This document shows, in pieces, positions 490-61,710 of a DNA stretch of 64,000 nt. Made by a program: the position numbers and the translations under genes. This DNA is from Escherichia coli (lineage in GTDB: Bacteria > Pseudomonadota > Gammaproteobacteria > Enterobacterales > Enterobacteriaceae). Where the stretch lies: the NCBI RefSeq assembly GCF_001677475.2, contig NZ_CP015229.1; one strand, given 5' to 3'. The notes beneath the pieces are model-generated. The model was not told the origin of the DNA, did not search any database, and saw nothing but the letters and a program-made list of their open reading frames with translations. The stretch's first letter is position 1, and every line of letters begins with the position of its first letter.

Positions 490-2142
490 TTAATGTCCCG
501 CAGGGCAACTGGCGCAGCGGTGTTGCTGCTCAAACTGACTAAAGAAATTATTGCCTTTATCATCTACCAGGATGAATGCGGGCAGATTTTCCACTTCCAT
601 CATCCACACCGCTTCCATACCCAGCTCCGGGTATTCAAGGCAACGCAGACTTTTGACATATTCTTGCGCCAGTAACGCAGCTGCACCGCCAATACTTCCC
701 AGATTGAAGCCGCCATGTTTGTGACAGGCATCGGTGACCTGCTGGCTGCGGTTACCTTTCGATAACATCACCAGACTGCCGCCAGCCGCCTGGAAGGTAT
801 CGACATAACCGTCCATTCGACCGCCCGTGGTTGGACCCAGTGAACCGCAGGCCATGTTCTCCGGTGTTTTCGCCGGGCCAGCGTAATAGACAATATGATG
901 CTTCAGGTAATCCGGCATCGGTTCGGCGCTATCCAGCCGCGCTTTTATTTTGGCGTGGGCGATATCGCGTGCCACTACGATGGGACCACTTAACGACACG
1001 CGGGTGCCTACCGGTAATCTGGCGAGATCCTGCATCACGTCACGCAACGGACGGTTTAGATCCAGATGTACATGTTGCGCGTGATTTTCTTCCCGCAGTG
1101 AGGCTGGAATATATTGCCCCGGATTGTGTTCGAGTTTTTCCAGCCAGATACCGTGCTTGTTAATTTTTGCTTTGATATTGCGATCGGCAGAACAGGAGAG
1201 CGCCATAGCTATCGGACAAGAGCCACCGTGACGCGGCAGACGAATGACGCGAATATCATGAGCGAAATATTTACCCCCAAATTGCGCACCAATACCAAAT
1301 TGCTGACTGGCCTCGAGCAACACTTTTTCCAGCTCAATATCACGGAATGCTTGTCCCTGCTCGTTTCCGCTGGTGGGCAAATTGTCGTAATATTTCGTTG
1401 AGGCCAGCTTGGCAACTTTTAAGGTTTGATCGGCTGAAAGCCCTCCGACGACAAAGGCGATGTGGTAAGGCGGGCAGGCAGCGGTGCCCAGCGATTTCAT
1501 TTTTTCGATTAAAAATGCGGTCAGTTTTTCTGGTTGCAATAAGGATTTGGTTTCCTGATAAAGTGCGGCTTTATTGGCGGAGCCGCCCCCTTTATTAACA
1601 CAGAGAAAATGGTACTCATTACCAGCGACAGCGTTGATATCAATCTGCGCCGGGAGATTGGTTTGCGTATTGACTTCGGTATACATATCCAGCGGCGCAT
1701 TTTGTGAAAAGCGCAGATTATTTTCCTGGAAAGTGGTGTAAATGCCTTTGCTTAAGGCTTCAGCGTCGTTACCTCCGGTCCATATCTGTTGCCCTTTACT
1801 GGCAACAATAGTTGCGGTGCCGGTATCCTGACAGTTGGGTAATACCCCTTTTGCTGAGACTTCAGCATTACGTAATAACTGCAACGCAACGTATTTATCA
1901 TTACTACTGGCCTGCGGATCGTTAAGAATGCTGGCGACCTGTTGCAAATGAGCGGAACGTAAGAAAAAAGAAGCTTCATAAAATGCCTGCCGGGCAAGCA
2001 GCGTTAATGCTTCAGGTGCGATTTTTATCACTTCTTCGCCGTCTAATTCCGTTACTGTAATATGCTGATCGCTAATTAATGTATATTCTGTACCGTCTTT
2101 ATTTTGTAGAAATGGTTCTTGCCAGATAAATGGTTTGGACAT
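490..2142 (-). CDS. fumD: Class I (Fe-S) fumarate hydratase family; probable mesaconase/fumarase
   Basis: 550-aa ORF, length and sequence typical of FumA/FumB-type hydro-lyases; sits in a glutamate mutase/methylaspartase cluster. The fumD symbol is from my recollection of the E. coli O157:H7 locus. Confidence 0.8.
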
Positions 2143-2249
2143 ATTTCACTTTTCACCTTAAACGTTAGTGTTACTTAATTGCCGTCTAACTTCATGATCC
2201 GGCTTATAAAAATGCATAGTCATTGGCTTCTGATTGCTTAAGATCCCCC

Positions 2250-3530
2250 TCAGGGCAGAGCAACGTTCGATTCATTGGGTTTTAATGCTTTACCCCGACA
2301 GCCCTCGCCGAAATGTTCGCCTTCCCACCGACTCACCATCGCAGCGCCCATTGCGTTGCTCATGACGTTTGTCGCGGAACGCCCCATATCAAGGAACGGA
2401 TCAACGCCCATCAGCAAGATCAGCCCCGCTTCCGGAATATTGAACTGGTTGAGCGTGGCGGCGATAACCACCATTGAAGCGCGTGGTACGCCAGCCATTC
2501 CTTTCGAGGTCAACATCAGGATCAACAGCATGGTGATTTGCTCACCGATGGATAAATGGATATTGCAGGCCTGGGCGATGAAAACTGTGGCGAAGGAGCA
2601 GTAGGCCATTGATCCAACGAGATTAAATGAGTAGCCAATGGGTAAGACAAAGCTGGCAATTTTGGGGGAAACGCCAAATTGCTCCAGTTTTTCAAGCGTT
2701 CCTGGAAAAGCCGCTTCAGAACTGGATGTGGTAAATGCCAGCAGGGCGGGTTCCGAAAGGGCGCGGGTCAGGCGTCTGATGCAGGGGCCGACATAAACGA
2801 TGGCCAGACCGATAAGCAGCACCCAAAGTAACAACATGGTGAAATAAAATTCACCCATAAAGATCCCGGCGCTCACCATAACTGCCAGTCCTCGTTCAGC
2901 AATCAATGCTGAAATAGCGGCGAATACGGTCAGGGGAGCGAAGAGCATGACGTAGCCAGTGAGCTTTAACATGGCATGTGCCAGCGAATCTAAGGCGTGA
3001 ACGATGGCGCTGCCTTTCTCGCCAATCGCCGTCAGGCTACAGCCGAGGAAAATTGAGAACACCACGATTTGCAAAATTTCATTGTGCGCCATGGCATCGA
3101 CAATGCTGGTGGGGAAAGCATGCGAAATAAATACTTTTAGCGTGAAGGGTTCTGACGCGACCACTCCAGTGGTTTCGGCACCGTGTGCAACAAAATTAAT
3201 TCCTGTACCTGGCATGAAGAAATTTACTGTTATTAAGCCTAAGGCAATTGACAGCAATGAGGCGCAAATAAATAAAAAGAGTGTTTTAGAAAAAATACGA
3301 CCAAGGGCTTTGGCATCGCCCATTTTAGCAATACCTACCACCAGGGTAGAGACCACTAACGGAGCGATAATCATTTTTATCAGTCGTAAGAAAATCGTCG
3401 TGAATATCGATATTTCTTGCGCATAGAGTTTTGCGGTTTCCGGTGAAGCAGTGTTATTGAGCACTACGCCGATAACCATTCCAAGTACCAGCGCCAAAAG
3501 AATCATCGTGGTTAAACTTATTTTCTTCAT
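2250..3530 (-). CDS. Dicarboxylate/amino acid:cation symporter (GltP/DctA-like), possible glutamate or C4/C5-dicarboxylate transporter
   Basis: Hydrophobic multi-TM ORF with DAACS-like motifs; start chosen at MKKISL (complement ATG 3528-3530) preceded by GGAGG; ORF-track start at 3551 rejected. Confidence 0.75.
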   Translation of the reverse strand: MKKISLTTMILLALVLGMVIGVVLNNTASPETAKLYAQEISIFTTIFLRLIKMIIAPLVVSTLVVGIAKMGDAKALGRIFSKTLFLFICASLLSIALGLITVNFFMPGTGINFVAHGAETTGVVASEPFTLKVFISHAFPTSIVDAMAHNEILQIVVFSIFLGCSLTAIGEKGSAIVHALDSLAHAMLKLTGYVMLFAPLTVFAAISALIAERGLAVMVSAGIFMGEFYFTMLLLWVLLIGLAIVYVGPCIRRLTRALSEPALLAFTTSSSEAAFPGTLEKLEQFGVSPKIASFVLPIGYSFNLVGSMAYCSFATVFIAQACNIHLSIGEQITMLLILMLTSKGMAGVPRASMVVIAATLNQFNIPEAGLILLMGVDPFLDMGRSATNVMSNAMGAAMVSRWEGEHFGEGCRGKALKPNESNVALP

Positions 3531-3580
3531 TTTTTCCTCCATCAGGTGCACGGCGATAAATCAGAATCAGGAGAAGTAGA

Positions 3581-3602
3581 TGCCTGAATAGAGATTCAGG
3601 CA
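3581..3602 (-). other. Perfect hairpin (tgcctgaat-aga-attcaggca) in intergenic gap inside the island operon
   Basis: Inverted repeat read directly between the DUF4387-like gene stop and the transporter start. Confidence 0.4.
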
Positions 3603-3690
3603 TCTACCTGCTATTACAACCTTACAAATAGCTGAAGTGTTGAACTGCAATAAGTGACGGGATGTCAGTTGGCTAAAAGTGTTCGGATTT

Positions 3691-4008
3691 TTACAAATCG
3701 AAACTCATATTTAATAAAGGTGCATGTTGCTGTGCACCATAGACATCATTGTCACCTACATTCCCGGAGATAATATCTCGTGGCATGACGATTTTTACTG
3801 CGTTAGAAGGATCAAACCAGACAATACGATGAATAAAGTCAGGTTCAACATGATATAAGCGCGCAATCAGTTCTGGGGTTAATTGCCCTGATGATTTAAC
3901 TCGCTCATAGTTTTCTTTGGTTTTAAATAAAATATCTAAAACCAGTTCGTAAGGTCCGGCATTTTTCGAACGAATGACTTGCGCCAGTGAGACAATTGAC
4001 TGTTTCAT
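3691..4008 (-). CDS. Small conserved protein of unknown function (DUF4387-like), partner of upstream AtuA-like gene
   Basis: 105-aa ORF; start overlaps upstream gene stop by 4 bp; family assignment from memory of DUF1446/DUF4387 pairing. Confidence 0.6.
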   Translation of the reverse strand: MKQSIVSLAQVIRSKNAGPYELVLDILFKTKENYERVKSSGQLTPELIARLYHVEPDFIHRIVWFDPSNAVKIVMPRDIISGNVGDNDVYGAQQHAPLLNMSFDL

Positions 4009-5375
4009 GCCTGAACTCCTTCTGGCGTCACCTGTTCAATATGGAAATCAAAACGCAGAGCGTCGTTGGCTTCAATCAGGTGATATATGGAAAATTCGTA
4101 TACTGGCCCGCCCTGGATATCAGAAGGGGAGAACGGGAACGCCAGGTTGCCTGCGGTAGCGATGCGGTTTTCATAGCCGTAGTGCAGCATAGTAGAGCGC
4201 ACCAGCGAGCAAACGCTGTTGGCAATTTCCTGGGTCGATGCAACTACATCTAGCACAATCCCCAGCTCATGCCCGGCAGTTTGCATCGGTTCATGGTCGC
4301 CCATCACCCCGTTTTTGCCGTACAGGTGGAAATTGATGCGAATGCTGTCATCGTCGAGCGACAGGTTACGCGAAACGCTGGTTTTGACTTCATCGATGAT
4401 TTTATCGATCCCGGCGATCATGATCGGGTCGCGCGTTCCTGCGATGGTCAGACAGCGGAAGCCCACTCGTCGCGCACCTTCCAGTTTCAGGGCATACGGC
4501 GTTCCTTCATGCTTAGAACCGCTGACGTACACTTCGCCGTCATTGACCGCTTTAAATGTGCAGCCTTTCAGGTTCAACACGCCGCCAGGTCCAGGCAGGA
4601 AGTAGGGATCGGATTTCTCATACAGTGTGTGTGCAGCCGCTGACGTTTCGGTAAATTTACGCTTCGGATTAAATGTCTTCAGCGTAAAGCCGTTGTCATC
4701 AATGATGCCCATCGCACAGTCAGAGCCTGAGCCGGGCGTTGCGGCGATTGCCGCGCATTCAAGGATTTTCCCACAATGCAGCGCCAGACCTTCATCAAAG
4801 CCTTGCATGATCGGTAGCGCAGCAAAGCAGGCCGGGTCGTAAGCGCGCCCGCCCAGCACCACTTGCGCGCCTTCTTTCAGCGCCTGCTGGAAGGGTTCGA
4901 TGCCCATTTGCGCGACGATATACGTACTTTCGTCAATCGCGTCGTGGGTTAACGGCGGGACAAAATCCAGCGCCGTGATTTTGCCGTTATCCAGCGCCTG
5001 GTGGACGATGGCTTTGTCAACGTCTGCCGGGATCAACGCCATCGAGAACGAGAGGTGCTCTTCCCGGGCAATCTCATGAATTATTTCTCGGCACCACTCC
5101 AGGTGTGGTGCGGCACCAGAACCGCCAGCCGTTCCGATCACCACCGGTATATTATTTTGCACGCCTGCGGTGATCATATAGCGCAGATCGCGCTTGACCC
5201 CTGCGCGATCGGTAAACGGTTTGCCTGCCCCGAGGTAGTGGGGGCCTGGATCGGAAGAGCCTGCATCAACGGCGATCAGATCGGGCGATTCTGCCATCGC
5301 TTTGCGGAAGCTCTCTTCCGGGAATCCATACCCGAGGATTGCCGTTGGCGATAAGACTTTAAAAGAACGAGCCAT
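4005..5375 (-). CDS. AtuA-like (DUF1446) family protein of unknown function
   Basis: 456-aa ORF, in-operon between methylaspartase and the DUF4387-like gene; family call from sequence feel, not a search. Confidence 0.6.
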   Translation of the reverse strand: MARSFKVLSPTAILGYGFPEESFRKAMAESPDLIAVDAGSSDPGPHYLGAGKPFTDRAGVKRDLRYMITAGVQNNIPVVIGTAGGSGAAPHLEWCREIIHEIAREEHLSFSMALIPADVDKAIVHQALDNGKITALDFVPPLTHDAIDESTYIVAQMGIEPFQQALKEGAQVVLGGRAYDPACFAALPIMQGFDEGLALHCGKILECAAIAATPGSGSDCAMGIIDDNGFTLKTFNPKRKFTETSAAAHTLYEKSDPYFLPGPGGVLNLKGCTFKAVNDGEVYVSGSKHEGTPYALKLEGARRVGFRCLTIAGTRDPIMIAGIDKIIDEVKTSVSRNLSLDDDSIRINFHLYGKNGVMGDHEPMQTAGHELGIVLDVVASTQEIANSVCSLVRSTMLHYGYENRIATAGNLAFPFSPSDIQGGPVYEFSIYHLIEANDALRFDFHIEQVTPEGVQA

Positions 5376-5378
5376 TTG

Positions 5379-6620
5379 TTAATCCTTAGCCTGCAACAGC
5401 GCGATAGTACGATTCATTTCGTTGAAGACAATATCGAGGCCTTCGTCAAAGCCCATCCCAGGTTTTACCAGCATACGCATAGGGCGAGCGGCAAGGGCGA
5501 CGTGGACACAGGTGCGTGCACTGACATCAGTTTCATTGCAGGTGCCGCCCTGGTACGCTTCCATGTTGTGGCTGTTGCAATAAAGAACTGCATCGACGAT
5601 GTTGTGAATACTGCCCAGATCCGGGGTTTTGATTTGCACCATGTGGCAACTGGCGGCATCAGTGAAATCAACAATATCCTGGTAGGTGTTACACCATTCA
5701 TCGGCCACAATTTTCACGCCGGAACCGAGGCGCATCAGCTCTTTGGTAATCGCGGTCAGCAGGCGAATTTGATCGGGCTTGTTACCGGCATCGACCGGCC
5801 CTTCAATGTAGAGCGGCAGGCCTTGCGCTTCTTTTTCCAGGCTGGCGATGTATTGCGCACAGCGAAGCGGATCCATATCGAAGATCAGACCGATAGTGCC
5901 GTATACATCGATGTGCAGGGTTGGGTGGTAGCGTGCGCTGGTGCGCTTGCTCAGAATGCGATCCGACAGCCAGCGGACATATTCGCGCAGTTTTTCACCT
6001 TTAAAGCCCAGCTTCTCTTCGACGTTATTAATCAGCGCATGGGGCAGCACGTCGATGCCTTTAAGGATCATCTTATCGACGGCGATATATCGATCGTCGC
6101 CGCTCTGACCAAATAATGGAATGGATTCCGCCACGCGTGGCAACTGCCATTCATCACAGACCACTTCAGTTTTCAGACGGCCGGTTGCCAGCGCGGCAGC
6201 ATCAAGCAGCGCCTGTGATAATCCGTAGCGCACGGCGGTATGCAGCAAGTTGCCGTCAATACGCAATTTGTCGAAGAAACGGGCATTCGGCAGGAAAGCA
6301 TCCACATCGCGGCCTACCAGTAATGGCTTAATATGGTCGTTGAGGAACGGAATAAAGTGCTCTGCGAGGAACAGTGGATCGCGACCACCTGCCCCGGAAT
6401 ACTGTACGGCAGCACAGTCACCTACAGCGACCGCGCCGTTTTCCAGAATCAACTGTACCGATACGCACTCCCCAGCCTGACGTACGGCGTTAAACCCTTG
6501 TGTTACTGGCTCCCCGGTATAAAAAAAGCCGTCGTGACCCGCTCCGTTTTTTATCGCCTGCTGGTCATCGAAATAGAATGAGGAATAGCCAGCGGTGAAC
6601 AGGGCCTGTTTTATTTTCAT
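5379..6620 (-). CDS. 3-methylaspartate ammonia-lyase (methylaspartase)
   Basis: 413-aa ORF with blocks CAAVQYSGAGGRDPLF, HIDVYGTIG, HMVQIKTPDLG, KPGMG.DEG matching clostridial methylaspartase; enolase-superfamily length. Confidence 0.9.
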   Translation of the reverse strand: MKIKQALFTAGYSSFYFDDQQAIKNGAGHDGFFYTGEPVTQGFNAVRQAGECVSVQLILENGAVAVGDCAAVQYSGAGGRDPLFLAEHFIPFLNDHIKPLLVGRDVDAFLPNARFFDKLRIDGNLLHTAVRYGLSQALLDAAALATGRLKTEVVCDEWQLPRVAESIPLFGQSGDDRYIAVDKMILKGIDVLPHALINNVEEKLGFKGEKLREYVRWLSDRILSKRTSARYHPTLHIDVYGTIGLIFDMDPLRCAQYIASLEKEAQGLPLYIEGPVDAGNKPDQIRLLTAITKELMRLGSGVKIVADEWCNTYQDIVDFTDAASCHMVQIKTPDLGSIHNIVDAVLYCNSHNMEAYQGGTCNETDVSARTCVHVALAARPMRMLVKPGMGFDEGLDIVFNEMNRTIALLQAKD

Positions 6621-8065
6621 TATGGTCTTCCTATTAATTTACTGTGGGATACAGCATTGATGTCATCTACAACCATCTGGAATGTCGGTTGGCGTCCTTC
6701 AAAGCGTGCGCGTTCCGCAACGTAATCGTGGTGGAGGTCGAGAATATCTTTTGGCAATGGAACGGCTCCGGCTTCCAGTACGCGTATCGCGCCGGTGTTG
6801 TCACGGACCGGAAGAATTTTGCCCGCGTTGCAGGCGGCTGGCGCAAATGGCACATCCAGTACGCCCGCTTCAAATGCCAGCACCGTTCCGCGCGCAATAT
6901 CATCATTACCCAGTTCGAACACTTTATTCAGTACTGCGCGAACCTCGCTCTTAATCAGTTCAATTTCCAGTTCAACCGCAGGGCACGGCGGAAATTTCTG
7001 CTCATTGACCATGTTGAGCATCTGGCGGGAGGCTTTTAGCCCCTGAATGTTGGCAGCGGCAGTCGGGATGCCCCAGGCTTCGTGCGGACTTTTGGTGATG
7101 ACTTTGGTGGCACCAGACATCCCCGCGACGGCTGCGCCCCAGGAGATAATAGCGAACGCTTTCGATTCGTCTTCCGGAAAGCCGCCCATCCACTGGTGAA
7201 ACACGGTACTTAATTCATAGTCGGTATAGCCATAGCTCTGAAAGTAGTCATGTGCAAGTTCACGCAGAGACTGGATCGCCGCAACATCCTGCGTCAGGCT
7301 GCCGACCTGTCCATAACCAACGGTGATAGATTTCACACCCTGTTCCAGTGCCAGCAATCCTTCGATTATCGCGATAGAGTGCGAGATAAACGGCGGGATC
7401 AGCGTACCCGTTAGTGGGCCAAACGGTTCGCGGTTGATGCGGATCCCGTGTTCTTCATACATCCCCATTAAACGGTCGCAGTACTGCCAGTCGCGGATCG
7501 ATTTTTCCAGCGTTACGCGTTTGGCATACGGAATGTTGTAGGAAATGCCGCCGCCTTCATAACTGGTAAAGCCGCTGGACATCGAGATTTCAGCCAGCAG
7601 ACGTGCATCTGGCGTGCCGTGGCGGATCTGTAGCGGTTTTTGCAGGGTTTCGGTGAGGCGACGGCAAGCAGCGACACCATGGTTAACTACCGGTAAACCG
7701 TTCAGTTTAGAGGTTCCGGCTTCGATGGATTTTTTAATCCCTACAGCCGCTTCTTCGTACCGATTCAGACGGGTATATGCATCGATGGTGCTTGGCAGCA
7801 GATCGCACTCTTCTTGTAGTGTTTTCAGTAGTTCGATGTGTTCGTCCATCAGCGCCACACCTGCGCGTGGTTGGCTAAGGGTTTTTCCTTCCTTGTCTGC
7901 TTTCAGCAGCGCAAGAGAGAAGCGTTTATGCTCAGGAATGGTTTGTTGGTATTTAACGCCATCTTCAAAGTTTTCAACATCCTTGCCGGTTTCCCAGGTT
8001 TTCAGTACCTGTTGCCGCTCGGTCATGAATTCGTCATGGGTTAATTTCTTATTTCGAAGTTCCAT
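6620..8065 (-). CDS. Glutamate mutase epsilon (E, catalytic) subunit
   Basis: 481-aa ORF; MELRNKK..., PRAGVALMDEHIELL, HGTPDARLLAEI, FHQWMGGFPEDESKAF match GlmE/MutE; 1-bp overlap with downstream methylaspartase gene. Confidence 0.9.
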   Translation of the reverse strand: MELRNKKLTHDEFMTERQQVLKTWETGKDVENFEDGVKYQQTIPEHKRFSLALLKADKEGKTLSQPRAGVALMDEHIELLKTLQEECDLLPSTIDAYTRLNRYEEAAVGIKKSIEAGTSKLNGLPVVNHGVAACRRLTETLQKPLQIRHGTPDARLLAEISMSSGFTSYEGGGISYNIPYAKRVTLEKSIRDWQYCDRLMGMYEEHGIRINREPFGPLTGTLIPPFISHSIAIIEGLLALEQGVKSITVGYGQVGSLTQDVAAIQSLRELAHDYFQSYGYTDYELSTVFHQWMGGFPEDESKAFAIISWGAAVAGMSGATKVITKSPHEAWGIPTAAANIQGLKASRQMLNMVNEQKFPPCPAVELEIELIKSEVRAVLNKVFELGNDDIARGTVLAFEAGVLDVPFAPAACNAGKILPVRDNTGAIRVLEAGAVPLPKDILDLHHDYVAERARFEGRQPTFQMVVDDINAVSHSKLIGRP

Positions 8066-8083
8066 TGATTGCAGCCTTAATTG

Positions 8084-9472
8084 TTATAGGGTTAAGCATT
8101 GAATACTGGTGCGCGCGGCGGCCAGCGGATCGACTCTGGCGACGTTTGCCAGCAGTGGTAATAGCCCCCGGGAATCGCGGTAATATTCAAATTCGGTCGG
8201 TAAGAGAATGCGTTTACCGTCGTCGTTTAACTCGCGGTATTTCAACCAGTGATGCATATCGAACTGACTGGCACGCGAGAGCCATCCGCCGGAACCCACG
8301 ACTTTACGCACGGTTGTCAGGTCACGTCCCATCTGTAAATCGACATTGCCGACGCAGGTGCAGACCTCTTTTTTGGTGCCCGCATGTCTTTCGGTGGCAT
8401 AACCCACACACAGTCCGGCCAGGACGGTATCGAAATATTTCTCTTCTGCATTTGCGGGTAAGTAGTCGGGATGAGCGACTAAATGACGGAGATAATGATA
8501 AAAAGCGTCCAGCTGTGCGGGTTGCTGAGCAAAATTCACATTGACTAACTCTTTCGCACTTTCACCAACCACCACTGCCGAGACGCGCATTCCCAGATCG
8601 CCTTCCACCGTCCGTTTTACGAAGGGTTCCGGTACGCCGTGTAAAACGGTGTCGGGCGAGAGCGTGTTGGCACAGGCGGAATAGACATCGGTGGTTGCGC
8701 CGCCCATGTCGATCAGCATGAACTCTTTCCAGCTGTGATCGACGTTACTGATTGCCTTAACCAGTTCAAAGACCGTCCATGGTGTCGGCCTTGGTTCTTC
8801 GCCTGTTTTATCAACAATGACATCCAGCCCTTTCCCTTTAACGATGCGTTTAAGGAATATGTCGCAAATAGCCTGGCGTGCGGCTAAAGGGTTCGGATGG
8901 TCAAGATCGGGCAGAACGTTGTCGACGATGGTCAGGTCTTTATGCCCGAGGAGCTCCTGCACCTCGTCCTGAATATCCCGGTTTCCGGCATAAATAATGG
9001 CGCAGTCGAGTTGGGATTCTGCCAGCACACGGGCGTTATTCAGTCCGTAACTTTCTTCTCCGCCGTCGGTGCCGCCGGTGAACAAGAGAATATCGGGCTG
9101 CGTTTCTTCCAGTGCCTGGATATCACGGCGGTTCAGCTTGTAGGAGTAATATTGCGCAATTTTAGCCCCCGCAGAGTGAGCGGTTACTTTCGCGGTTTCC
9201 AGGGTGATAGAAGGCACCAATCCCATTGCGGCAACCGCCAGCCCACCTTTGGCAGAGGAGGAATACTTTAATGCAACCTCACCACTGTTTAACAGGGGGA
9301 GGGCATCATCTACGTTTAACACCTGGTCCAGGCTGGAGAAAAACCCCTTCGCCAGATGATGGGTGGTGGTTGGGGTCAGAACGTGGTTAACCAACGTTAA
9401 CGCGTCCCCCTCCCGGGTGAAGAGGGCTGCTTTGGTCCACGTCGAACCAATATCGACAGAGACGATTTGCAT
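8084..9472 (-). CDS. Glutamate mutase component L (MutL/GlmL-type putative reactivating chaperone)
   Basis: 462-aa ORF between the S and E subunit genes, the position GlmL occupies in clostridial operons; N-terminus [18 protein letters not shown] is actin/hsp70-fold like. Confidence 0.8.
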   Translation of the reverse strand: MQIVSVDIGSTWTKAALFTREGDALTLVNHVLTPTTTHHLAKGFFSSLDQVLNVDDALPLLNSGEVALKYSSSAKGGLAVAAMGLVPSITLETAKVTAHSAGAKIAQYYSYKLNRRDIQALEETQPDILLFTGGTDGGEESYGLNNARVLAESQLDCAIIYAGNRDIQDEVQELLGHKDLTIVDNVLPDLDHPNPLAARQAICDIFLKRIVKGKGLDVIVDKTGEEPRPTPWTVFELVKAISNVDHSWKEFMLIDMGGATTDVYSACANTLSPDTVLHGVPEPFVKRTVEGDLGMRVSAVVVGESAKELVNVNFAQQPAQLDAFYHYLRHLVAHPDYLPANAEEKYFDTVLAGLCVGYATERHAGTKKEVCTCVGNVDLQMGRDLTTVRKVVGSGGWLSRASQFDMHHWLKYRELNDDGKRILLPTEFEYYRDSRGLLPLLANVARVDPLAAARTSIQCLTL

Positions 9473-9921
9473 CAGATTGCCTCTTCAAGAATGCGAGTAT
9501 CAACGTCATGACGTTGGTTGATATCGTGGGCCATCAGCTGACAAACATCTTCTAAGTCATGACTTGGGGAAAAGACGCGATCAAATCCCATCTCTTTGAA
9601 CTTGGTTTCCACGTCAGCGAAGTCATGTTTTCCGACCACCAGGTTACCGCCCACATAGAGCAGGATGTTACCCAGCCCACGCTCGATGCAGCGTTCGCGC
9701 ATGCCCAGACAATCGATATCGCCATGCCCATAGATAGAAGAGACGACAATCGCGTCAGCGCCAGTTTCAATAGCAGCATCAATATATTCGTCCTGGCTGA
9801 CCATTACGCCCAGATTAATGACTCTGAAGTCGTGGTTGCTAAAAACGCGGTCCAGAACTTTATTGCCTACTGCATGGCAGTCCGCGCCAATAACGCCAAT
9901 CACAAGTGTTGCTTTCTTCAT
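9472..9921 (-). CDS. Glutamate mutase sigma (S, B12-binding) subunit
   Basis: [24 protein letters not shown] carries the DxHxxG cobalamin-binding motif; start moved to internal ATG (complement 9919-9921) with AAGGA SD; ORF-track start 9984 rejected. Confidence 0.9.
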
Positions 9922-10468
9922 GGGTAATCCTTTGTAAGACAGAGAGTAAAATAAGTTACACACGTCGTATTTATGGCCGCTCATAACGGCACAGGTTTAA
10001 TATCACAGGAGTGTCTTTATCTGACCGTAATGTTGCAATTGATCTATTTTCAAAATGTCTTTCGGGAAATGATTGTTTAAAGTGTGTTTTCAAATTCTCA
10101 TTTTAATTCAGTGTGTTATGTCAACTAATGTCATGAATGTTAAATTTTTAAAATTAACTTGATTTGATGTATTGAGATAATTGTGATCAACTTCTAATTT
10201 GCATTTTTGTGACGTGGCTTTAGCCATGAGTAAATGCATTTCATAAAAGTTAAGTCGAATTTCACTGCAATTCATCTCTGCTTAATGTAAAAATAATGTT
10301 GAAAATAACAAATAATTAATGATTCATGCGAATTATGACCTTTGTTAGCTCTTTTGATTTTTCGTAAAAAAGAAAAGCACATGAAGGTGCTACCAGTACG
10401 AGAAACGTTAATCAAAAGTTTTATTACGTCTGGCAATAACGCAGGCCATTTTTCGCGACAGGAGGGAT
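9922..10468 (-). promoter_or_regulatory. AT-rich leader/promoter region of the glutamate mutase operon
   Basis: About 550 bp non-coding, very AT-rich, directly upstream of the first operon gene; no specific sites identified. Confidence 0.4.
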
Positions 10469-10891
10469 TTAATCAGTATAATCCTCATACAATAGGTCAG
10501 GATTTACAGAACCGTTAACGGGGTTTTGGTGTTGAAATTTAGAAATGGTGGAGTCAATCAATGAAGACAGTATCGAAAAAATGACTGTGTCAGAACTAAT
10601 TTCAATTAATCCTTCTCGTTGTTGATCAAAAAAGATATTTATCTTGATTTCATTTGTACTACGGCAATCAATATGTAGTAATTTTTGATCGCTGAGATTT
10701 TCTGTTTCATAAATGTTTTTGGCGATAGTCGGATGTATTGATGCCAGACATCTGCTCAGATAAGCCATATCCTTTAAGGAACTCCCCGCTGAGTAGAGGA
10801 TGTCAGAGAATTTTTGTGTGTCAACTGTTGTCTCTGAAGCGTATGTTGCATTGACAGGAAGAGTATTGAAAGAGATCTGAGATGGTATCAT
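10469..10891 (-). CDS. Hypothetical acidic small protein (140 aa), second gene of AT-rich two-gene module
   Basis: Complete ORF in AT-rich DNA; Asp/Glu-rich, no motif I recognise. Confidence 0.55.
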   Translation of the reverse strand: MIPSQISFNTLPVNATYASETTVDTQKFSDILYSAGSSLKDMAYLSRCLASIHPTIAKNIYETENLSDQKLLHIDCRSTNEIKINIFFDQQREGLIEISSDTVIFSILSSLIDSTISKFQHQNPVNGSVNPDLLYEDYTD

Positions 10892-10972
10892 TATTTAAAT
10901 CTTTCCGTGAGTAATAAAAATTAATCCCCAGGCATTGTTTAGCAATATTTGCCATAGGGGATATATAGAAAA

Positions 10973-11917
10973 TTAAAGTATTTTATTGGCTTCGGTTAAC
11001 TGATCTATAACCAGTGCCAGATTGGTAAACATTTTGAAAAAGCGATACTGGCTCGGAATATCTCTTTCAAAGACGAAACATTCAAGGTCATTGTTTGAAA
11101 AATAAAGGACTAGTGTTGCTGATTCGTCAGGGAAAACATGGAAATGTATCTGGTTACCAGAAGGAGGATAGTCCAGAAGAAGGGTATCTTTGCCCGTCAC
11201 ATACCTGTTGTTGTCGTGGACGCTACGCTCACACTTCATCAGAGGTGTCAGGATACTCATGTATTCATCTGATGTTAATTTATTAAAATCATCATTCATT
11301 TTAAAGAAACGATAAAGTAACAGTACATCCTCTTGCGTAACCGGTTCGTTTGTTTTTAGAGGGAAATAAGCGGGAACCAGAAGATGAGGTTCTAATCTAT
11401 TTTGTTGAGCGCTATAACTGAATTTGAACATAAATTCTGGATCGCTCATCAATTGAGCGACATAATTATGCCTGGCTTCAAAAATTTTAATTTTTATCAG
11501 GTTGAATAAGTCTGTTTCGTCATCCTGTATTAAAAGACATTGGCCATAGCAGCCTGGATTTTTTTCATTATAAGCAGAAACGGTTATTCTGTCAGAGGTG
11601 TCAACGTTATATTCAAAAGCCAGATAGTGACCTTCTTCATCGCGATTTGTTTCCAGGTTATTTAAATTCATCACATGAAGTGTTTGCAATGCTGATTCAA
11701 TGAGTTGTTGACTCTCTGAGGTAAATGTTTTGCGCTGCGTTGTATAAAGTGTATCAATTCCAACGACTATCCGATGTGGATCAAGGATGGCGGCAATCAT
11801 CTTTATTACCTGCACAGTCACGGGTGATGTCATTGATTCTTCATCTGTTTTTAGAGGATCATTAGATGGCCAACCTGAGAAGCGATTGACAGCCGAACCG
11901 ATATTATCTGGACTCAT
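10973..11917 (-). CDS. Hypothetical protein (314 aa), first gene of AT-rich two-gene module
   Basis: Complete ORF, same strand and 81 bp upstream of the 140-aa ORF; no TM segments or known motifs recognised; spot-checked 60-bp lines are about one-third G+C. Confidence 0.55.
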   Translation of the reverse strand: MSPDNIGSAVNRFSGWPSNDPLKTDEESMTSPVTVQVIKMIAAILDPHRIVVGIDTLYTTQRKTFTSESQQLIESALQTLHVMNLNNLETNRDEEGHYLAFEYNVDTSDRITVSAYNEKNPGCYGQCLLIQDDETDLFNLIKIKIFEARHNYVAQLMSDPEFMFKFSYSAQQNRLEPHLLVPAYFPLKTNEPVTQEDVLLLYRFFKMNDDFNKLTSDEYMSILTPLMKCERSVHDNNRYVTGKDTLLLDYPPSGNQIHFHVFPDESATLVLYFSNNDLECFVFERDIPSQYRFFKMFTNLALVIDQLTEANKIL

Positions 11918-12722
11918 AGCAGCAACCTCATTGTAATCAAGCGAGGCGCTGAGCGTACTCGGCTATAGAAAAACTAACTTGCAAAAATCGCTCATTTTTC
12001 ATTTATCAGGCGAAAGTGGCCTCTGTTCACTCAGAAACAATCACTCCCGCTAAGTCATACCTGTTTCATCGATACATTTAAGTGATTATTACTAATGAAA
12101 CAATAACATAACGGGCTTACGGTCGGTGCTCATAAAGGCAACAATCAATTAACTTTGATAAAAATATGTTATGTAAAATAGCAACAAATTGGCTACTCTA
12201 ATCAATTGGTATTATAAAAAGAGGATAAGGCGGTTCTGTTAAATAAAACACTGGTTTTTTATCTATACCTTTTCATTGTAATAATTGTGTTGCATAAATA
12301 TTTCACAATAAATTAACAATAAAATCACCAATGATCTATGGTTTATACATAATTAACATATTTGGTTGGTTTTGATATAAATCAATTTTTAATTCTTGAA
12401 AAAAATCTGCAAAACACGATAAATTGTCGTAGATCAAATTGGTGAGATCGTGACAATTTCGCTATAAATTGATCACTGTCGAAAAATGCAAATTTGCTCA
12501 ATAAAAACCTGTTTATTGTAAGGATTTTGCGGCGTAATATAATTACGGGATCAATTTGGTTTATTCATTAACATATTTGTAACTTTTTTATCATTGTCTT
12601 TTCCTCTTTTGATGAAATGGCAACGATAGAGGCGAGCAAATAATTTTGTATTGGGGCATGCGTGTGACCCTTTCTAACGGGGTTCACTCTCGGAGTCTTC
12701 ATGCGATGAGCAAGGAGTCATG
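11918..12722 (+). promoter_or_regulatory. cydAB upstream regulatory region, AT-rich
   Basis: Long AT-rich non-coding region before cydA; in E. coli the cydAB promoters are controlled by ArcA, FNR and H-NS (established knowledge); individual sites not resolved by eye. Confidence 0.5.
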
Positions 12723-14291
12723 ATGTTAGATATAGTCGAACTGTCGCGCTTACAGTTTGCCTTGACCGCGATGTACCACTTCCTTTTTGTGCCACTGACG
12801 CTCGGTATGGCGTTCCTGCTGGCCATTATGGAAACGGTCTACGTCCTTTCCGGCAAACAGATTTATAAAGATATGACCAAGTTCTGGGGCAAGTTGTTTG
12901 GTATCAACTTCGCTCTGGGTGTGGCTACCGGTCTGACCATGGAGTTCCAGTTCGGGACTAACTGGTCTTACTATTCCCACTATGTAGGGGATATCTTCGG
13001 TGCGCCGCTGGCAATCGAAGGTCTGATGGCCTTCTTCCTCGAATCCACCTTTGTAGGTCTGTTCTTCTTCGGTTGGGATCGTCTGGGTAAGGTTCAGCAT
13101 ATGTGTGTCACCTGGCTGGTGGCGCTCGGTTCAAACCTGTCCGCGCTGTGGATTCTGGTTGCGAACGGCTGGATGCAAAACCCAATCGCGTCCGATTTCA
13201 ACTTTGAAACTATGCGTATGGAGATGGTGAGCTTCTCCGAGCTGGTGCTTAACCCGGTTGCTCAGGTGAAATTCGTTCACACTGTAGCGTCTGGTTATGT
13301 GACTGGCGCGATGTTCATCCTCGGTATCAGCGCATGGTATATGCTGAAAGGTCGTGACTTCGCCTTCGCTAAACGCTCCTTTGCTATCGCTGCCAGCTTC
13401 GGTATGGCTGCCGTTCTGTCTGTTATTGTTCTGGGTGATGAATCCGGCTACGAAATGGGCGACGTGCAGAAAACCAAACTGGCTGCTATTGAAGCTGAGT
13501 GGGAAACGCAACCTGCGCCTGCTGCCTTTACTCTGTTCGGCATTCCTGATCAGGAAGAGGAGACGAACAAATTTGCGATCCAGATCCCTTACGCGCTGGG
13601 CATCATTGCAACGCGTTCCGTGGATACTCCAGTTATCGGCCTGAAAGAACTGATGGTGCAGCATGAAGAACGCATTCGTAACGGGATGAAGGCGTACTCT
13701 CTGCTCGAACAACTGCGTTCTGGTTCTACCGACCAGGCGGTTCGTGACCAGTTCAATAGCATGAAGAAAGACCTCGGTTACGGTCTGCTGCTGAAACGCT
13801 ATACGCCAAACGTGGCTGATGCGACTGAAGCTCAGATTCAACAGGCAACCAAAGACTCCATTCCGCGTGTAGCGCCGCTGTACTTTGCGTTCCGTATCAT
13901 GGTGGCGTGTGGCTTCTTGCTGCTGGCAATCATCGCGCTCTCTTTCTGGAGTGTCATCCGCAACCGCATTGGCGAGAAAAAATGGTTGCTGCGCGCCGCG
14001 CTGTACGGTATTCCGCTGCCGTGGATTGCTGTAGAAGCGGGCTGGTTCGTGGCTGAATATGGCCGCCAACCGTGGGCTATCGGTGAAGTGCTGCCGACAG
14101 CTGTGGCAAACTCGTCACTGACCGCAGGCGATCTCATCTTCTCAATGGTGCTGATTTGTGGCCTGTATACCCTGTTCCTGGTGGCAGAATTGTTCTTAAT
14201 GTTCAAGTTTGCACGCCTCGGCCCAAGCAGCCTGAAAACCGGTCGCTATCACTTTGAGCAGTCTTCCACGACTACTCAGCCGGCACGCTAA
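12723..14291 (+). CDS. cydA: Cytochrome bd-I ubiquinol oxidase subunit I
   Basis: Translation [28 protein letters not shown]... recognised as CydA; start at second ATG to give 522 aa. Confidence 0.97.
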
Positions 14292-17606: not shown

Positions 17607-18872
17607 GTGTCAAAGGCAACCGAACAAAACGACAAGCTCAAGCGGGCGATAATTATTTCAGCAGTGCTGCATGTCATCTTATTTGCGGCGCTGATCTGGA
17701 GTTCGTTCGATGAGAATATAGAAGCTTCAGCTGGAGGCGGCGGTGGTTCGTCCATCGACGCTGTCATGGTTGATTCAGGTGCGGTAGTTGAGCAGTACAA
17801 ACGCATGCAAAGCCAGGAATCAAGCGCGAAGCGTTCTGATGAGCAGCGCAAGATGAAGGAACAGCAGGCTGCTGAAGAACTGCGTGAGAAACAAGCGGCT
17901 GAACAGGAACGCCTGAAGCAACTTGAGAAAGAGCGGTTAGCTGCTCAGGAACAGAAAAAGCAGGCTGAAGAAGCCGCAAAACAGGCCGAGTTAAAGCAGA
18001 AGCAAGCGGAAGAGGCGGCAGCGAAAGCGGCGGCAGATGCTAAAGCGAAGGCCGAAGCGGATGCTAAAGCTGCGGAAGAAGCAGCGAAGAAAGCGGCTGC
18101 AGACGCGAAGAAAAAAGCAGAAGCAGAAGCCGCCAAAGCCGCAGCCGAAGCGCAGAAAAAAGCCGAGGCAGCCGCTGCGGCACTGAAGAAGAAAGCGGAA
18201 GCGGCAGAAGCAGCTGCAGCTGAAGCAAGAAAGAAAGCGGCAACTGAAGCTGCTGAAAAAGCCAAGGCAGAAGCTGAGAAGAAAGCGGCTGCTGAAAAGG
18301 CTGCAGCTGATAAGAAAGCGGCAGCAGAGAAAGCTGCAGCCGACAAAAAAGCAGCAGAAAAAGCGGCTGCTGAAAAAGCAGCAGCTGATAAGAAAGCAGC
18401 GGCAGAAAAAGCCGCCGCAGACAAAAAAGCGGCAGCGGCAAAAGCAGCAGCTGAAAAAGCCGCTGCAGCAAAAGCGGCCGCAGAGGCAGATGATATTTTC
18501 GGTGAGCTAAGCTCTGGTAAGAATGCACCGAAAACTGGGGGAGGGGCGAAAGGGAACAATGCTTCGCCTGCCGGGAGTGGTAATACTAAAAACAATGGCG
18601 CATCAGGGGCCGATATCAATAACTATGCCGGGCAGATTAAATCTGCTATCGAAAGTAAGTTCTATGACGCATCGTCCTATGCAGGCAAAACCTGTACGCT
18701 GCGCATAAAACTGGCACCCGATGGTATGTTACTGGATATCAAACCTGAAGGTGGCGATCCCGCACTTTGTCAGGCTGCGTTGGCAGCAGCTAAACTTGCG
18801 AAGATCCCGAAACCACCAAGCCAGGCAGTATATGAAGTGTTCAAAAACGCGCCATTGGACTTCAAACCGTAA
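17607..18872 (+). CDS. tolA: Tol-Pal system protein TolA
   Basis: 421-aa ORF with N-terminal TM segment, long Ala/Lys/Glu-rich helical domain II and C-terminal domain III. Confidence 0.97.
   Translation: MSKATEQNDKLKRAIIISAVLHVILFAALIWSSFDENIEASAGGGGGSSIDAVMVDSGAVVEQYKRMQSQESSAKRSDEQRKMKEQQAAEELREKQAAEQERLKQLEKERLAAQEQKKQAEEAAKQAELKQKQAEEAAAKAAADAKAKAEADAKAAEEAAKKAAADAKKKAEAEAAKAAAEAQKKAEAAAAALKKKAEAAEAAAAEARKKAATEAAEKAKAEAEKKAAAEKAAADKKAAAEKAAADKKAAEKAAAEKAAADKKAAAEKAAADKKAAAAKAAAEKAAAAKAAAEADDIFGELSSGKNAPKTGGGAKGNNASPAGSGNTKNNGASGADINNYAGQIKSAIESKFYDASSYAGKTCTLRIKLAPDGMLLDIKPEGGDPALCQAALAAAKLAKIPKPPSQAVYEVFKNAPLDFKP
17980..18480 (+). repeat. Low-complexity tandem repeat DNA encoding TolA domain II (A/K/E-rich)
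   Basis: Visible reiterated gcggc(a/t)gc(a/t)gaaaaagc units; generates spurious antisense ORFs. Confidence 0.85.
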
Positions 18873-40681: not shown

Positions 40682-41635
40682 TTAACCTATCTCCTGTAAC
40701 GCATGTCTCTGGCGTTCGACGATATTGGTCCACAAGTTATCTTTATCGTCGGTCCATAAATTAATCAGCAAGGCAAAAAAGCGTTCTGCAGCCGGAGAAA
40801 GCACGGCATCTTTGCGGCGAATAATCCCCAATGTCCGACGTATAACCGGTTCCACCAGCGGGATACCAATAATCGAAGAATAGGGTGCATGGGGCATTGC
40901 CAGACCAGGAAGCGCCGAAATCCCCAGTCCCGCCTCCACCAGTCCTAATGACGTCGAAAGATGACGCACTTCGTAAAACCAGTCCAGCTTCCAGGGCTTG
41001 TCGGCCAGCTGTTGTTCTATCAACAGTCGGTTGCCGCTGGAGGAGCGCACGCCAATCATTTTGTAACCCACTAACTCCTGCCATTCTACAAGCTGCTTTT
41101 TGGCCAATGGATGGTCACGCCGACAGGCCAGCACGAACGGCTCGTTGACCAGTGGGGTAAAATCAATGGATGAATTTGTGACGTTGTTCATGTTTATGCC
41201 AAAGTCTGATTCGTTACACAGCACCGATTCCATGCAATTATTCGTGCCTTGTTCCAGAATCCGCACTTTAATATTGGGATACAGCTCATTAAATTTACCA
41301 ATTGCCAGTGGTAAAAAATAAAATACTGCGGTCGGAATACACGCTAACGTCACCATACCACGATGATAAGCATTCATATCACGAATGCTAAAAAGCGTTT
41401 CATCGAATTTCTTTATTAATTCCCGCGCCTCCGGGAGCAACCTTTTTCCTGCTTTTGTTAACGTAACCTTGCGAGTTGTACGCTCAAAAAGTTGTATGTG
41501 TAAATCTTCTTCCATCTTTTTTATTCTTCGCGTTAATGCAGGTTGCGTAATATTGAGTAATTTAGCGGCATTGTTAAATGAACTGGACTCTGCCAGTATG
41601 ACAAATGCCTTCATACTTGATAATTCATGCTTCAT
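40682..41635 (-). CDS. ybhD: LysR-family transcriptional regulator YbhD
   Basis: HTH segment SSFNNAAKLLNITQPALTRRIKKMEEDL; start at MKHELSSMKAF (317 aa) is my choice and is uncertain. Confidence 0.88.
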   Translation of the reverse strand: MKHELSSMKAFVILAESSSFNNAAKLLNITQPALTRRIKKMEEDLHIQLFERTTRKVTLTKAGKRLLPEARELIKKFDETLFSIRDMNAYHRGMVTLACIPTAVFYFLPLAIGKFNELYPNIKVRILEQGTNNCMESVLCNESDFGINMNNVTNSSIDFTPLVNEPFVLACRRDHPLAKKQLVEWQELVGYKMIGVRSSSGNRLLIEQQLADKPWKLDWFYEVRHLSTSLGLVEAGLGISALPGLAMPHAPYSSIIGIPLVEPVIRRTLGIIRRKDAVLSPAAERFFALLINLWTDDKDNLWTNIVERQRHALQEIG

Positions 41636-41818
41636 TATTACTCCGGAAAATGGAAGCGACGATTTTGGGTGGCTGGCCGTTAAAAATTTTAACTGCATTT
41701 AGCCAACTTAAATTAATGAAAAAATGTTATTAATCGTTGAGCTAAAGTCATTAGAGATGCTTTGCCCTTAATGTAACCATATCGCAATAAGTTATGTTTT
41801 TAAATTGAGGGCATTATT

Positions 41819-61504: not shown

Positions 61505-61523
61505 TTCTTTTTTCACCATCAAT

Positions 61524-61550
61524 ATCCCGGCCATGTGTCGGGATTTTTTT
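61524..61550 (+). terminator. Rho-independent terminator after ybhL
   Basis: atcccggccatgtgtcgggat followed by ttttttt. Confidence 0.7.
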
Positions 61551-61710
61551 CTTACGAAAAAACGACACTTAACAAGTACCAGGTATAAAATATGCCTTAT
61601 GAGCGAGCGGAAGCGTTTTCCGTATCCATAAATAAAAAAGTATTTTGTATGCGTGGCTTTAAATTTATTGATGATAAATATTAATGTTTTTTCTAAGGAC
61701 AACTAAAAGA

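Follow-up and report, generated by a model that had tools for sequence, protein, structure and literature searches.

The question posed by this locus is whether the AT-rich DNA lying between a glutamate-fermentation operon and cydA is one acquired block that arrived with the operon, or something more ordinary. The AT-richness itself is confirmed. In the window, by which we mean the whole 64-kb stretch of DNA analysed, a log-odds maximal-segment scan placed the strongest AT-rich segment at 9898-12652 (2755 bp), with a GC of 0.345 compared with 0.506 for the window overall, which at the kilobase scale is an AT content of the kind found in H-NS-silenced xenogeneic DNA. The block lies about 15 points of GC under the genome. 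Values were 0.351 for the interval 9922-12722 to which the original prediction referred, 0.30-0.40 in the 500-bp bins from 10001 to 12500 and approximately 0.45-0.59 in bins elsewhere in the window. The prediction that this is the sole extended AT-rich stretch is borne out, with a GC of 0.456 in the lowest 2801-bp segment free of overlap with the block and all other low-GC runs no longer than 815 bp. The GC profile, which had been named as a check, departs clearly from the flanks, with non-overlapping 2801-bp segments averaging 0.513 (sd 0.023) and the block falling about 7 sd below that mean. The AT-tract curvature profile named alongside it did not single out the orphan genes: A-tract helical phasing, a proxy for curvature, showed no excess over them (10-11 bp versus off-period power of 2.21 in the block and 2.37 elsewhere) and stood out at the cydA promoter only. 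By part, GC was 0.324 in the glmS upstream region (9922-10468), 0.359 and 0.382 in the two minus-strand open reading frames (10469-10891 and 10973-11917, hereafter ORF140 and ORF314), and 0.333 in the 802-bp intergenic region between ORF314 and cydA.

The region is fairly ordinary and is not a single recently imported block. The block is probably composite, made up of three neighboring units, each AT-rich for a reason of its own. The right 375-600 bp, from about 12130 or 12347 to 12722, would be the ordinary upstream control region of cydAB; the middle, at about 10366-12081, would be a pair of orphan genes pointing away from cydA and forming a cassette that is old, evolves fast and is restricted to Escherichia; and the left, at 9922-10365, would be the regulatory region of the glutamate-fermentation operon (glmS-glmL-glmE-mal and onward).

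The right-hand unit is bounded by the core gene cydA (cytochrome bd-I subunit I; 12723-14291, plus strand, GC 0.526). The core cydAB promoter and 5′ leader (12347-12722, plus strand) are homologous in all E. coli, and positions 12347-12749 matched the K-12 mngB-cydA spacer at 81.6% identity (E 1e-103), compared with 98.8% identity to K-12 in the cydA coding sequence. Part of the 5′ leader, at about 12590-12660, is of a different haplotype from K-12. Upstream of 12347 there was no detectable homology with the K-12 spacer. The distal upstream region (12082-12346, plus strand) is common to LF82-type and E. albertii alleles, and the remaining 11918-12081 was found only in ORF314-carrying alleles and is absent from the LF82 and K-12 types. 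Other E. coli genomes correspondingly match the window only from 12347 (K-12 or mng type) or from 12082 (LF82 or TPR type). Every allele has an AT-rich spacer in front of cydA, with a GC of 0.365 in K-12, 0.319 in LF82 and 0.338 in E. albertii.

The block thus abuts and includes the cydAB promoters, as originally stated, and the K-12 orthologue of this region is a published target of ArcA, FNR and H-NS. ArcA acts at cydAB through disruption of H-NS (PMC3798270). In K-12, FNR, H-NS and, at three sites, ArcA bind the upstream region, and ArcA activates cydAB by displacing H-NS. Two FNR boxes are present here, TTGATATAAATCAA at 12372-12385, a perfect TTGAT-N4-ATCAA, and TTGATCACTGTCGA at 12469-12482; they are about 97 bp apart and 245-345 bp upstream of the cydA ATG, the same distances from the ATG as in K-12, and the K-12 FNR peak at 770404 maps between them at window position 12443. 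The K-12 ArcA sites 1 (770081-111), 2 (770260-311) and 3 (770526-556) map to 12132-12156, 12299-12350 and 12565-12594. The counterpart of site 3 is kept, with substitutions, and ArcA-like repeats occur at the positions of sites 1 and 2, where the sequence is weakly homologous or not homologous to K-12; matches to ArcA-box and H-NS motifs in the block are largely expected from AT-richness alone. A near-invariant footprint with ArcA-like half-sites, at about 12132-12179 and some 215-260 bp from the ORF314 start codon, lies where the strongest ArcA site of K-12 maps. The K-12 H-NS ChIP-chip region (770402-770674) corresponds to about 12441-12716, the cydA-proximal part. The region therefore resembles its K-12 equivalent in both FNR boxes, in a counterpart of ArcA site 3, in spacer length (802 versus 846 bp) and in low GC (0.333 versus 0.365), and differs in what lies beyond the spacer, which is the 3′ end of mngB in K-12 and a divergent orphan gene here.

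That orphan gene, ORF314 (10973-11917, minus strand), encodes 314 amino acids, is divergent from cydA and is confined to the genus Escherichia. A GAGG Shine-Dalgarno motif stands 8 nt before its ATG, and within it, in the sense direction, is a near-consensus sigma-70 promoter-like site (CTGACA-17-TATAAT, 11/12; 11567-11595, minus strand). The E. coli and E. albertii alleles differ by 220 substitutions with an excess at third positions (101 versus 65 and 54), and despite 23% nucleotide divergence the reading frame has kept precisely 314 codons and has acquired no indel. When the same 220 substitutions were placed at random, the frame stayed open in 0.02% of placements (2/10,000). With a dN/dS of 0.2-0.45, ORF314 is a genuine protein-coding gene on which purifying selection acts weakly. 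Both E. albertii and E. coli have numerous distinct variants that are intact at 314 aa; in an E. albertii cluster of 131 members, 13 of the 15 listed were full length. When ORF314 was compared exhaustively with 1.84 billion representatives by phmmer, the only matches were Escherichia fragments and a repeat-protein artefact (P0020), a profile search of the PDB gave no match, and the AlphaFold model had a pLDDT of 45 and no fold match.

Its neighbor ORF140 (10469-10891, minus strand; 140 aa) is found in E. coli only, and its coding status is weakly supported. In several lineages it carries a frameshift or survives only as a relic, and its substitutions were uninformative, with 11% of random placements keeping the frame and 17, 12 and 18 changes at the three codon positions; ORF140 is dispensable and decaying. 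The two genes are separated by an imperfect hairpin followed by a U-rich run (10924-10962, minus strand) that is conserved in a cryptic-clade Escherichia locus (L013). Approximately 80 nt past the ORF140 stop is a weak terminator-like hairpin with a T-run (10366-10391, minus strand; -10 kcal/mol, z -2.3), the stem of which is weakened in other alleles and which is probably the 3′ end of the orphan transcription unit. Searches of both proteins against Pfam, PADLOC, NCBIfam and PHROGs gave a best E of 0.0096, with all matches in libraries with curated cutoffs falling below the cutoff, and none of these model sets assigned the pair to anti-phage defense or toxin-antitoxin systems. Neither 5.8 billion clusters nor 1.8 billion representatives yielded a detectable relative outside Escherichia, and the AlphaFold model of ORF140, like that of ORF314, was of low confidence. 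A similar beta3-alpha pattern raised the idea that ORF140 is a paralogue of an ORF314 domain, which was rejected at an hhalign probability of 0.9%. The pair shares with other taxonomically restricted Escherichia orphan genes the lack of outside relatives, an elevated dN/dS, AT-richness and poor AlphaFold models, and differs from them in that ORF314 is unusually long and is fixed beside a core respiratory operon in two species.

The left-hand unit precedes glmS (methylaspartate/glutamate mutase subunit S; 9472-9921, minus strand), the first gene of the glutamate-fermentation operon in the RefSeq annotation of a 98%-identical O157:H7 locus, which has a GC of 0.489 and a dN/dS of 0.03-0.09 and lies outside the AT-rich block. 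The proximal upstream region (9922-10075, minus strand) is 97-99% identical across all alleles, including that of a cryptic-clade Escherichia, and is presumed to be the glm promoter/operator and 5′ UTR; a consensus sigma-70 site was not found on its minus strand. It contains a GC-rich palindrome or hairpin, GCCGTTATGA(G/A)CGGC (9976-9990, minus strand), in which allelic changes keep pairing (U-G to U-A), a candidate operator or 5′-UTR hairpin. An FNR site considered at 10039-10053 (TTGATCTATTTTCAA) was rejected because it requires 5-nt spacing, or 3 mismatches at 4-nt spacing, and none was found at 2 or fewer mismatches. The distal part (10076-10365, minus strand) is very AT-rich and is 86-98% identical between alleles (74-91% by an alternative figure), and its small open reading frames are not conserved, with 1-nt indels in the N96 and L005 alleles. 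The original prediction was right that 9922-10468 holds no open reading frame over 60 aa, the longest being 58, 55, 54 and 40 aa.

Several other explanations of the locus may be weighed against a composite origin. It is unlikely, in our judgement, that the 2.8 kb as a whole form a single xenogeneic block that came with the glutamate-fermentation island, is silenced by H-NS and rewires cydAB regulation. Such a block would account for the almost perfect linkage in E. coli of the orphan pair (1135 of 5426 complete genomes) with glmE-glmL (1131), both AT-richness and silence, and a cydA upstream haplotype linked to the island that diverges from K-12 far more than the cydA coding sequence does. The orphan genes are patchily distributed in the species, being missing from 79% of E. 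coli genomes. Against a single block, the island has a host-like GC of 0.509; the right 375-600 bp are homologous to, or positionally equivalent with, the cydAB control region universal in E. coli, for which the K-12 mngB-cydA spacer is itself at a GC of 0.365; the same non-K-12 haplotype upstream of cydA occurs in LF82-type genomes that have no island; and in the RefSeq annotation of the O157:H7 locus there is no integrase, transposase or IS, or tRNA between the LysR gene and cydA. Island and orphans are also separable. In an E. albertii-type locus (L004, with a cydA 98.8% identical to that of the E. albertii type strain) an intact ORF314 (64% amino acid identity) adjoins cydA, ORF140 is a relic and the glm island is absent, and in the cryptic-clade locus the glm cluster is present and both orphans are decayed. 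In E. albertii ORF314 adjoins cydA although no island is present, so it did not come in with the island, and the AT-rich DNA is an old genus-level neighbor of cydA as opposed to island cargo; neither the single acquired unit nor the island cargo of the original reading is supported. The same uncoupling bears on the very improbable suggestion that ORF314 and ORF140 are accessory proteins of glutamate fermentation, e.g. regulators or chaperones, that are AT-rich only through fast evolution. Tight linkage to glm in E. coli and a position immediately upstream of glmS on the same strand would fit that suggestion, but between the orphans and glmS lie a terminator-like site and a conserved promoter region of 440 bp, and the paper treating the cluster in other enterobacteria reports no such partners, the word "hypothetical" appearing nowhere in its main text.

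It could also be asked whether the two reading frames are genes at all, or whether the middle of the block is a decaying, non-coding AT-rich spacer, the fossil of an old insertion, with frames open by chance. The absence of homologues outside Escherichia and of family matches, the low-confidence structure models, the near-zero RNA-seq signal, the uninformative substitutions of ORF140 and the existence of disrupted copies (P0061 and P0062, frameshifted or fragmentary; the E. albertii type strain, split into 209+108 aa; and L013) would all be expected of such a fossil. We nonetheless regard it as quite improbable given the behavior of ORF314, with 314 codons free of indels at 23% divergence, a third-position excess, a dN/dS of 0.4, a frame that so rarely survives random substitution, many distinct intact variants in two species and a good Shine-Dalgarno motif. 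Turning to the glm leader, a 547-bp gap free of open reading frames before an operon for a B12-dependent mutase invites the idea that 9922-10468 is a riboswitch or small RNA, possibly cobalamin-sensing, that explains its length, and the very conserved proximal 150 bp and the pair-preserving changes in the 9976-9990 hairpin are compatible with this. We give it little credence. Rfam covariance models run against both strands of 9400-13000 gave no match at E<=1, the minimum free energy of the 444-nt leader showed no excess of structure over shuffled sequences (z +0.17), the proximal 89 nt had a folding z of -0.95, about 100 bp of the gap are the 3′ end of ORF140 and the terminator-like region, and a promoter/operator explains the conserved part equally well. 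The regulatory RNA originally proposed for the leader thus found no support from either Rfam or folding.

In published EDL933 RNA-seq covering 11 conditions, the whole stretch was near-silent while the adjoining cydA was expressed, in agreement with the low expression expected of the genes in the block, which were practically untranscribed. This makes H-NS silencing of the orphan cassette plausible, on the strength of its composition and low expression alone. The glm genes, which have normal GC, were equally silent, none of the 11 conditions having been designed as anaerobic and glutamate- and B12-supplemented, and silence could reflect missing induction without any involvement of H-NS. Under the composite reading, H-NS/StpA filaments would nucleate in the AT-rich DNA and, under ordinary conditions, prevent transcription both of ORF314-ORF140 and from the glm promoter, and they may be continuous with the H-NS-bound cydAB upstream region, such that ORF314 and cydAB would have in common an 800-bp divergent spacer controlled by ArcA and H-NS. 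Three points here are inferences: that H-NS occupies DNA beyond the cydA-proximal part, where the glm promoter lies, and that there is any cross-talk with cydAB. The locus is like known H-NS-silenced accessory DNA, such as bgl or the AT-rich O-islands of O157:H7, in low GC, patchy presence, near-silent orphans and a near-consensus promoter-like site within a gene. It differs in lacking mobility genes and any sign of recent import, and in being syntenic with cydA in E. albertii, by which the cassette behaves like long-resident DNA undergoing loss.

The value of these findings is mostly corrective, in that the AT-rich tract beside cydAB is not cargo of the glutamate-fermentation island and the island is compositionally native. 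That island is the methylaspartate, or FumD/ECs0757, cluster of E. coli O157:H7 (Kronen and Berg 2015, PMC4682846). As in the published cluster, the genes to the left of the block are fumD, a symporter, an AtuA-like gene, methylaspartate ammonia-lyase, glmE, glmL and glmS, the block holding the upstream regulatory region; GC is normal in the cluster, and many enterobacteria have homologues of it, whereas the AT-rich orphans are not part of it elsewhere. In addition, E. albertii and roughly one in five E. coli, O157:H7 among them, carry a sequence upstream of cydAB that diverges from the K-12 model beyond -376 and is flanked by a divergent orphan gene, and for this reason the K-12 picture of distal ArcA and H-NS control may not transfer unchanged. 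It is conceivable, if rather unlikely, that ORF314 is a functional genus-specific protein that responds to oxygen and either partners or modulates the cytochrome bd locus, its pairing with cydAB having lasted throughout the divergence of E. coli and E. albertii because the common ArcA/H-NS-controlled spacer drives its expression. If so, it would be an unrecognized partner of that locus, lost from the laboratory lineages used for work on cydAB regulation.

Comparison of alleles suggests that the cassette has stood beside cydA since before the split of E. coli and E. albertii, a vertical and ancient reading that rests on four non-E. coli or divergent loci and is subject to possible recombination between species at a hotspot. 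In most E. coli the orphan cassette would since have been deleted or replaced, with mngRAB taking its place in the K-12 type and a TPR gene in the LF82 type. The sucD-cydA interval is a multi-allele replacement hotspot, and relics allow the history of its states to be reconstructed. Neither this nor the non-K-12 sequence upstream of cydAB is surprising in kind, and both could be of interest to specialists. The states seen at sucD-cydA were mngRAB, the glm island with the orphans, a glmS relic accompanied by a TPR gene, and, in E. albertii, a version that may encode an outer-membrane protein.

The AT-rich block at 9922-12722 is a mosaic of three units, namely the cydAB control region, which is native, two orphan genes (ORF314 and ORF140) that form an old cassette specific to Escherichia, and the promoter region of the glutamate-fermentation (glm) operon. 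Gene order runs from the glutamate-fermentation cluster to cydABX-ybgE-ybgC-tolQRA-tolB-pal, and cydA (plus strand, RefSeq start 12723) has 98.8–99.3% identity with K-12-type and O157:H7 cydA. That this is the sole extended AT-rich block in the window was borne out by 500-bp bins (GC 0.30–0.40 over 10001-12500 versus about 0.45–0.59 elsewhere), by a maximal-segment scan (strongest segment 9898-12652, GC 0.345 versus 0.506 for the window), and by a GC of 0.456 in the next-lowest non-overlapping 2.8-kb window; the remaining low-GC runs are all 815 bp or less. Low GC extends over the 547-bp gap between glmS and ORF140 (9922-10468, GC 0.324), ORF140 (10469-10891, minus strand, 0.359), ORF314 (10973-11917, minus strand, 0.382), which lies beyond an 81-bp spacer, and the 802-bp spacer between ORF314 and cydA (0.333). 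glmS (9472-9921, minus strand) has a GC of 0.489 and, because the glutamate-fermentation genes at 490-9921 are at host level (0.509), the AT-rich DNA is not the island; it is made up only of the stretch upstream of the island, the orphan gene pair and the spacer before cydA.

K-12 coordinates were carried over via the K-12-type locus with the offset set by the cydA ATG, which yields the published ArcA site sequences exactly. The K-12 ArcA ChIP-seq regions 770081-111, 770260-311 and 770526-556 (PMC3798270 Tables S2-S4) map to 12132-12156, 12299-12350 and 12565-12594, respectively, the FNR ChIP peak at 770,404 (PMC3688515) maps to 12443, between a perfect FNR box (12372-12385) and a second one (12469-12482), and one H-NS ChIP-chip region, 770402-770674 (PMC3688515 Table S3), maps to about 12441-12716. 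Thus about 600 bp of the block is ordinary cydAB control region, and the original prediction was right that it adjoins an H-NS/ArcA/FNR-controlled promoter. Activation of cydAB by ArcA is thought to work via disruption of H-NS (PMC3798270). Detectable K-12 homology in the spacer is confined to 12347-12722, and 12082-12346 is common to the window, LF82-type and E. albertii alleles. Here species that differ by about 18% in the surrounding sequence are nearly identical over a stretch at approximately 12132-12179 (CAATCAATTAACTTTGATAAAAATATGTTATGTAA...); this stretch bears ArcA-like half-sites, coincides with the map point of K-12's strongest ArcA site and lies about 215–260 bp from the ORF314 start codon. 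ORF314 and cydAB thus have a divergent spacer in common. The cydA promoter and 5′ leader occur as two deeply diverged E. coli haplotypes (81.6% identity, 12347-12749 versus the K-12-type locus), in which one block, at about 12590-12660, is essentially exchanged, despite identical CydA proteins and 98.8% identity of the coding sequence. The non-K-12 haplotype is common to island carriers, LF82-type strains and E. albertii.

ORF314 is a genuine gene. Its length is fixed at 314 codons with zero indels over 23% nucleotide divergence, substitutions are most frequent at third codon positions (101 versus 65 and 54), dN/dS is 0.2–0.45, a GAGG Shine-Dalgarno motif is present, and the frame stays open in only 0.02% of cases when the observed substitutions are placed at random. 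The case for ORF140 is weaker, with dN/dS of 0.26–0.49, 11% of random placements leaving the frame open, frameshifts in some E. coli (variants P0061 and P0062), and no more than relics left in the cryptic clade and in E. albertii. A terminator-like hairpin and T-run lie 3′ of ORF140 (10391-10366), with a weaker stem in other alleles. The best sigma-70 match within 9400-13000 is a near-consensus promoter-like site (CTGACA-17-TATAAT, 11/12) at 11567-11595, minus strand, inside ORF314 in the sense direction. Promoter-like sites are common within AT-rich genes, and H-NS is reported to suppress them.

The original prediction treated the block as acquired, xenogeneic DNA. The orphan pair occurs in 1135 and glmE-glmL in 1131 of 5426 complete E. 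coli genomes, an almost perfect linkage within this species. In non-carriers the match to the window runs leftwards from cydA to one of two break points only, 12347 in genomes with mngR-mngAB upstream of cydA (K-12 type) and 12082 in those with a TPR-protein gene there (LF82/Nissle type). The LF82 locus retains at 5694-5795 a diverged glmS relic in syntenic position and orientation (window counterpart 9636-9688), a weak match (77% over 53 nt; amino acids 69-102 by tblastn, E 0.005) suggesting that the LF82/B2-type allele (sucD, TPR gene, cydA) derives from a glm-bearing ancestor by deletion. At an E. albertii locus (L004), whose cydA has 98.8% identity with that of the type strain, sucD is followed by a 258-aa ORF, some 960 bp of AT-rich DNA in which ORF140 survives only as a relic, an ORF314 that is intact (64% amino acid identity to the window's) and cydA, and the glm cluster is absent from this sucD-cydA locus. 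ORF314 of the type strain is frameshifted (209 + 108 aa), and the full-length 314-aa form was found in 13 of the 15 members listed of a 131-member E. albertii cluster. In the cryptic clade (L013) the glm cluster adjoins an ORF314 in advanced decay and an ORF140 of which the C-terminal third alone is left. The 2.6–3.1 kb upstream of cydA is AT-rich across all of these lineages (GC 0.34–0.36), as is the K-12 mngB-cydA spacer (GC 0.365), and dS is 0.55 for ORF314 versus 0.29–0.31 for cydA. The simplest reading would be that the AT-rich cassette beside cydA predates the E. coli/E. albertii split, that most E. coli probably later lost it or had it replaced, and that its arrival was probably separate from that of the glutamate island. 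What stood of the original reading is an AT-rich, silent block beside an H-NS/ArcA/FNR-controlled promoter; this block is not a single xenogeneic import linked to the island. Replacement hotspots holding AT-rich accessory DNA with little expression are already well known, and the new findings are modest: the history of the alleles at sucD-cydA, ORF314 as a conserved, positionally fixed orphan gene, and, in carriers of the window allele, a distal cydAB control region that differs from that of K-12.

The block was near-silent in 11 conditions of published EDL933 RNA-seq, in keeping with the expectation that it is not constitutively expressed, but the GC-normal glm genes were equally silent, so silence cannot separate H-NS silencing from lack of induction. 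AA/TT helical phasing, taken as a crude measure of curvature, was elevated only at the cydA promoter; the orphan genes showed no such rise. H-NS may silence the cassette, and cross-talk between cassette and cydAB is conceivable.

In the glm leader, the proximal part (9922-10075) has 97–99% identity across all alleles, cryptic clade included, versus only 74–91% between alleles in the distal part (10366-10468), a gradient steeper than predicted from synonymous divergence of neighbouring genes. This points to a putative constrained promoter/operator and short 5′ UTR upstream of glmS. A consensus sigma-70 site was not found on the glm strand of the leader, as would suit a promoter that depends on an activator. 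Read from the sequence alone are a candidate extended -10, TGTGATATT (10007-9999), and a palindrome at 9976-9990 whose substitutions preserve pairing. An ORF listing confirmed the absence of ORFs over 60 aa from 9922-10468. The suggestion of a regulatory RNA found no support, since the leader matched no Rfam family, showed no folding advantage over shuffled sequence (z +0.17), and has small ORFs disrupted by 1-nt indels in other alleles. The 547-bp gap is accounted for by the promoter region and the orphan unit's 3′ end.

Several minor observations concern the same hotspot. The L004 258-aa ORF (9907-10683 of that locus, between sucD and the AT-rich region) has a normal GC of 0.498 and no Pfam hit on record, and looks like a possible beta-barrel outer-membrane protein with signal peptide; its allele is the fourth at the hotspot and occurs in 0 of 5426 complete E. 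coli genomes. An imperfect palindromic element of roughly 130 bp (…GAATCCCGATGAGCTTACATAAATAAGTGATTCGGGG…), a putative ERIC/IRU-like repeat, is inserted between the ORF314 and ORF140 remains of L013 (Escherichia sp. MOD1-EC7003, about 9090-9230). An IS4-family transposase splits the orphan pair in one genome (E. coli Br_112_kylling, NZ_CP182371.1, H45), and in another record a 76-kb plasmid-labelled replicon (NZ_CP195869.1, H57) carries some of the glm region. ORF314 at 92–93% identity on MAG contigs labelled Collinsella sp. and Citrobacter sp. (L010, L011) most likely reflects mis-binned E. coli contigs, not genuine occurrences in those genera. Elsewhere in the window, shorter low-GC patches (GC 0.39–0.40, 450–815 bp) lie at 3468-4036 (a spacer and the DUF4387 gene within the glutamate island), 41122-41936 and 61436-61883, and the by far highest AT skew (0.71, 500-bp bin 18001-18500) lies within tolA, presumably where the gene encodes its Ala/Lys/Glu-rich repeats.
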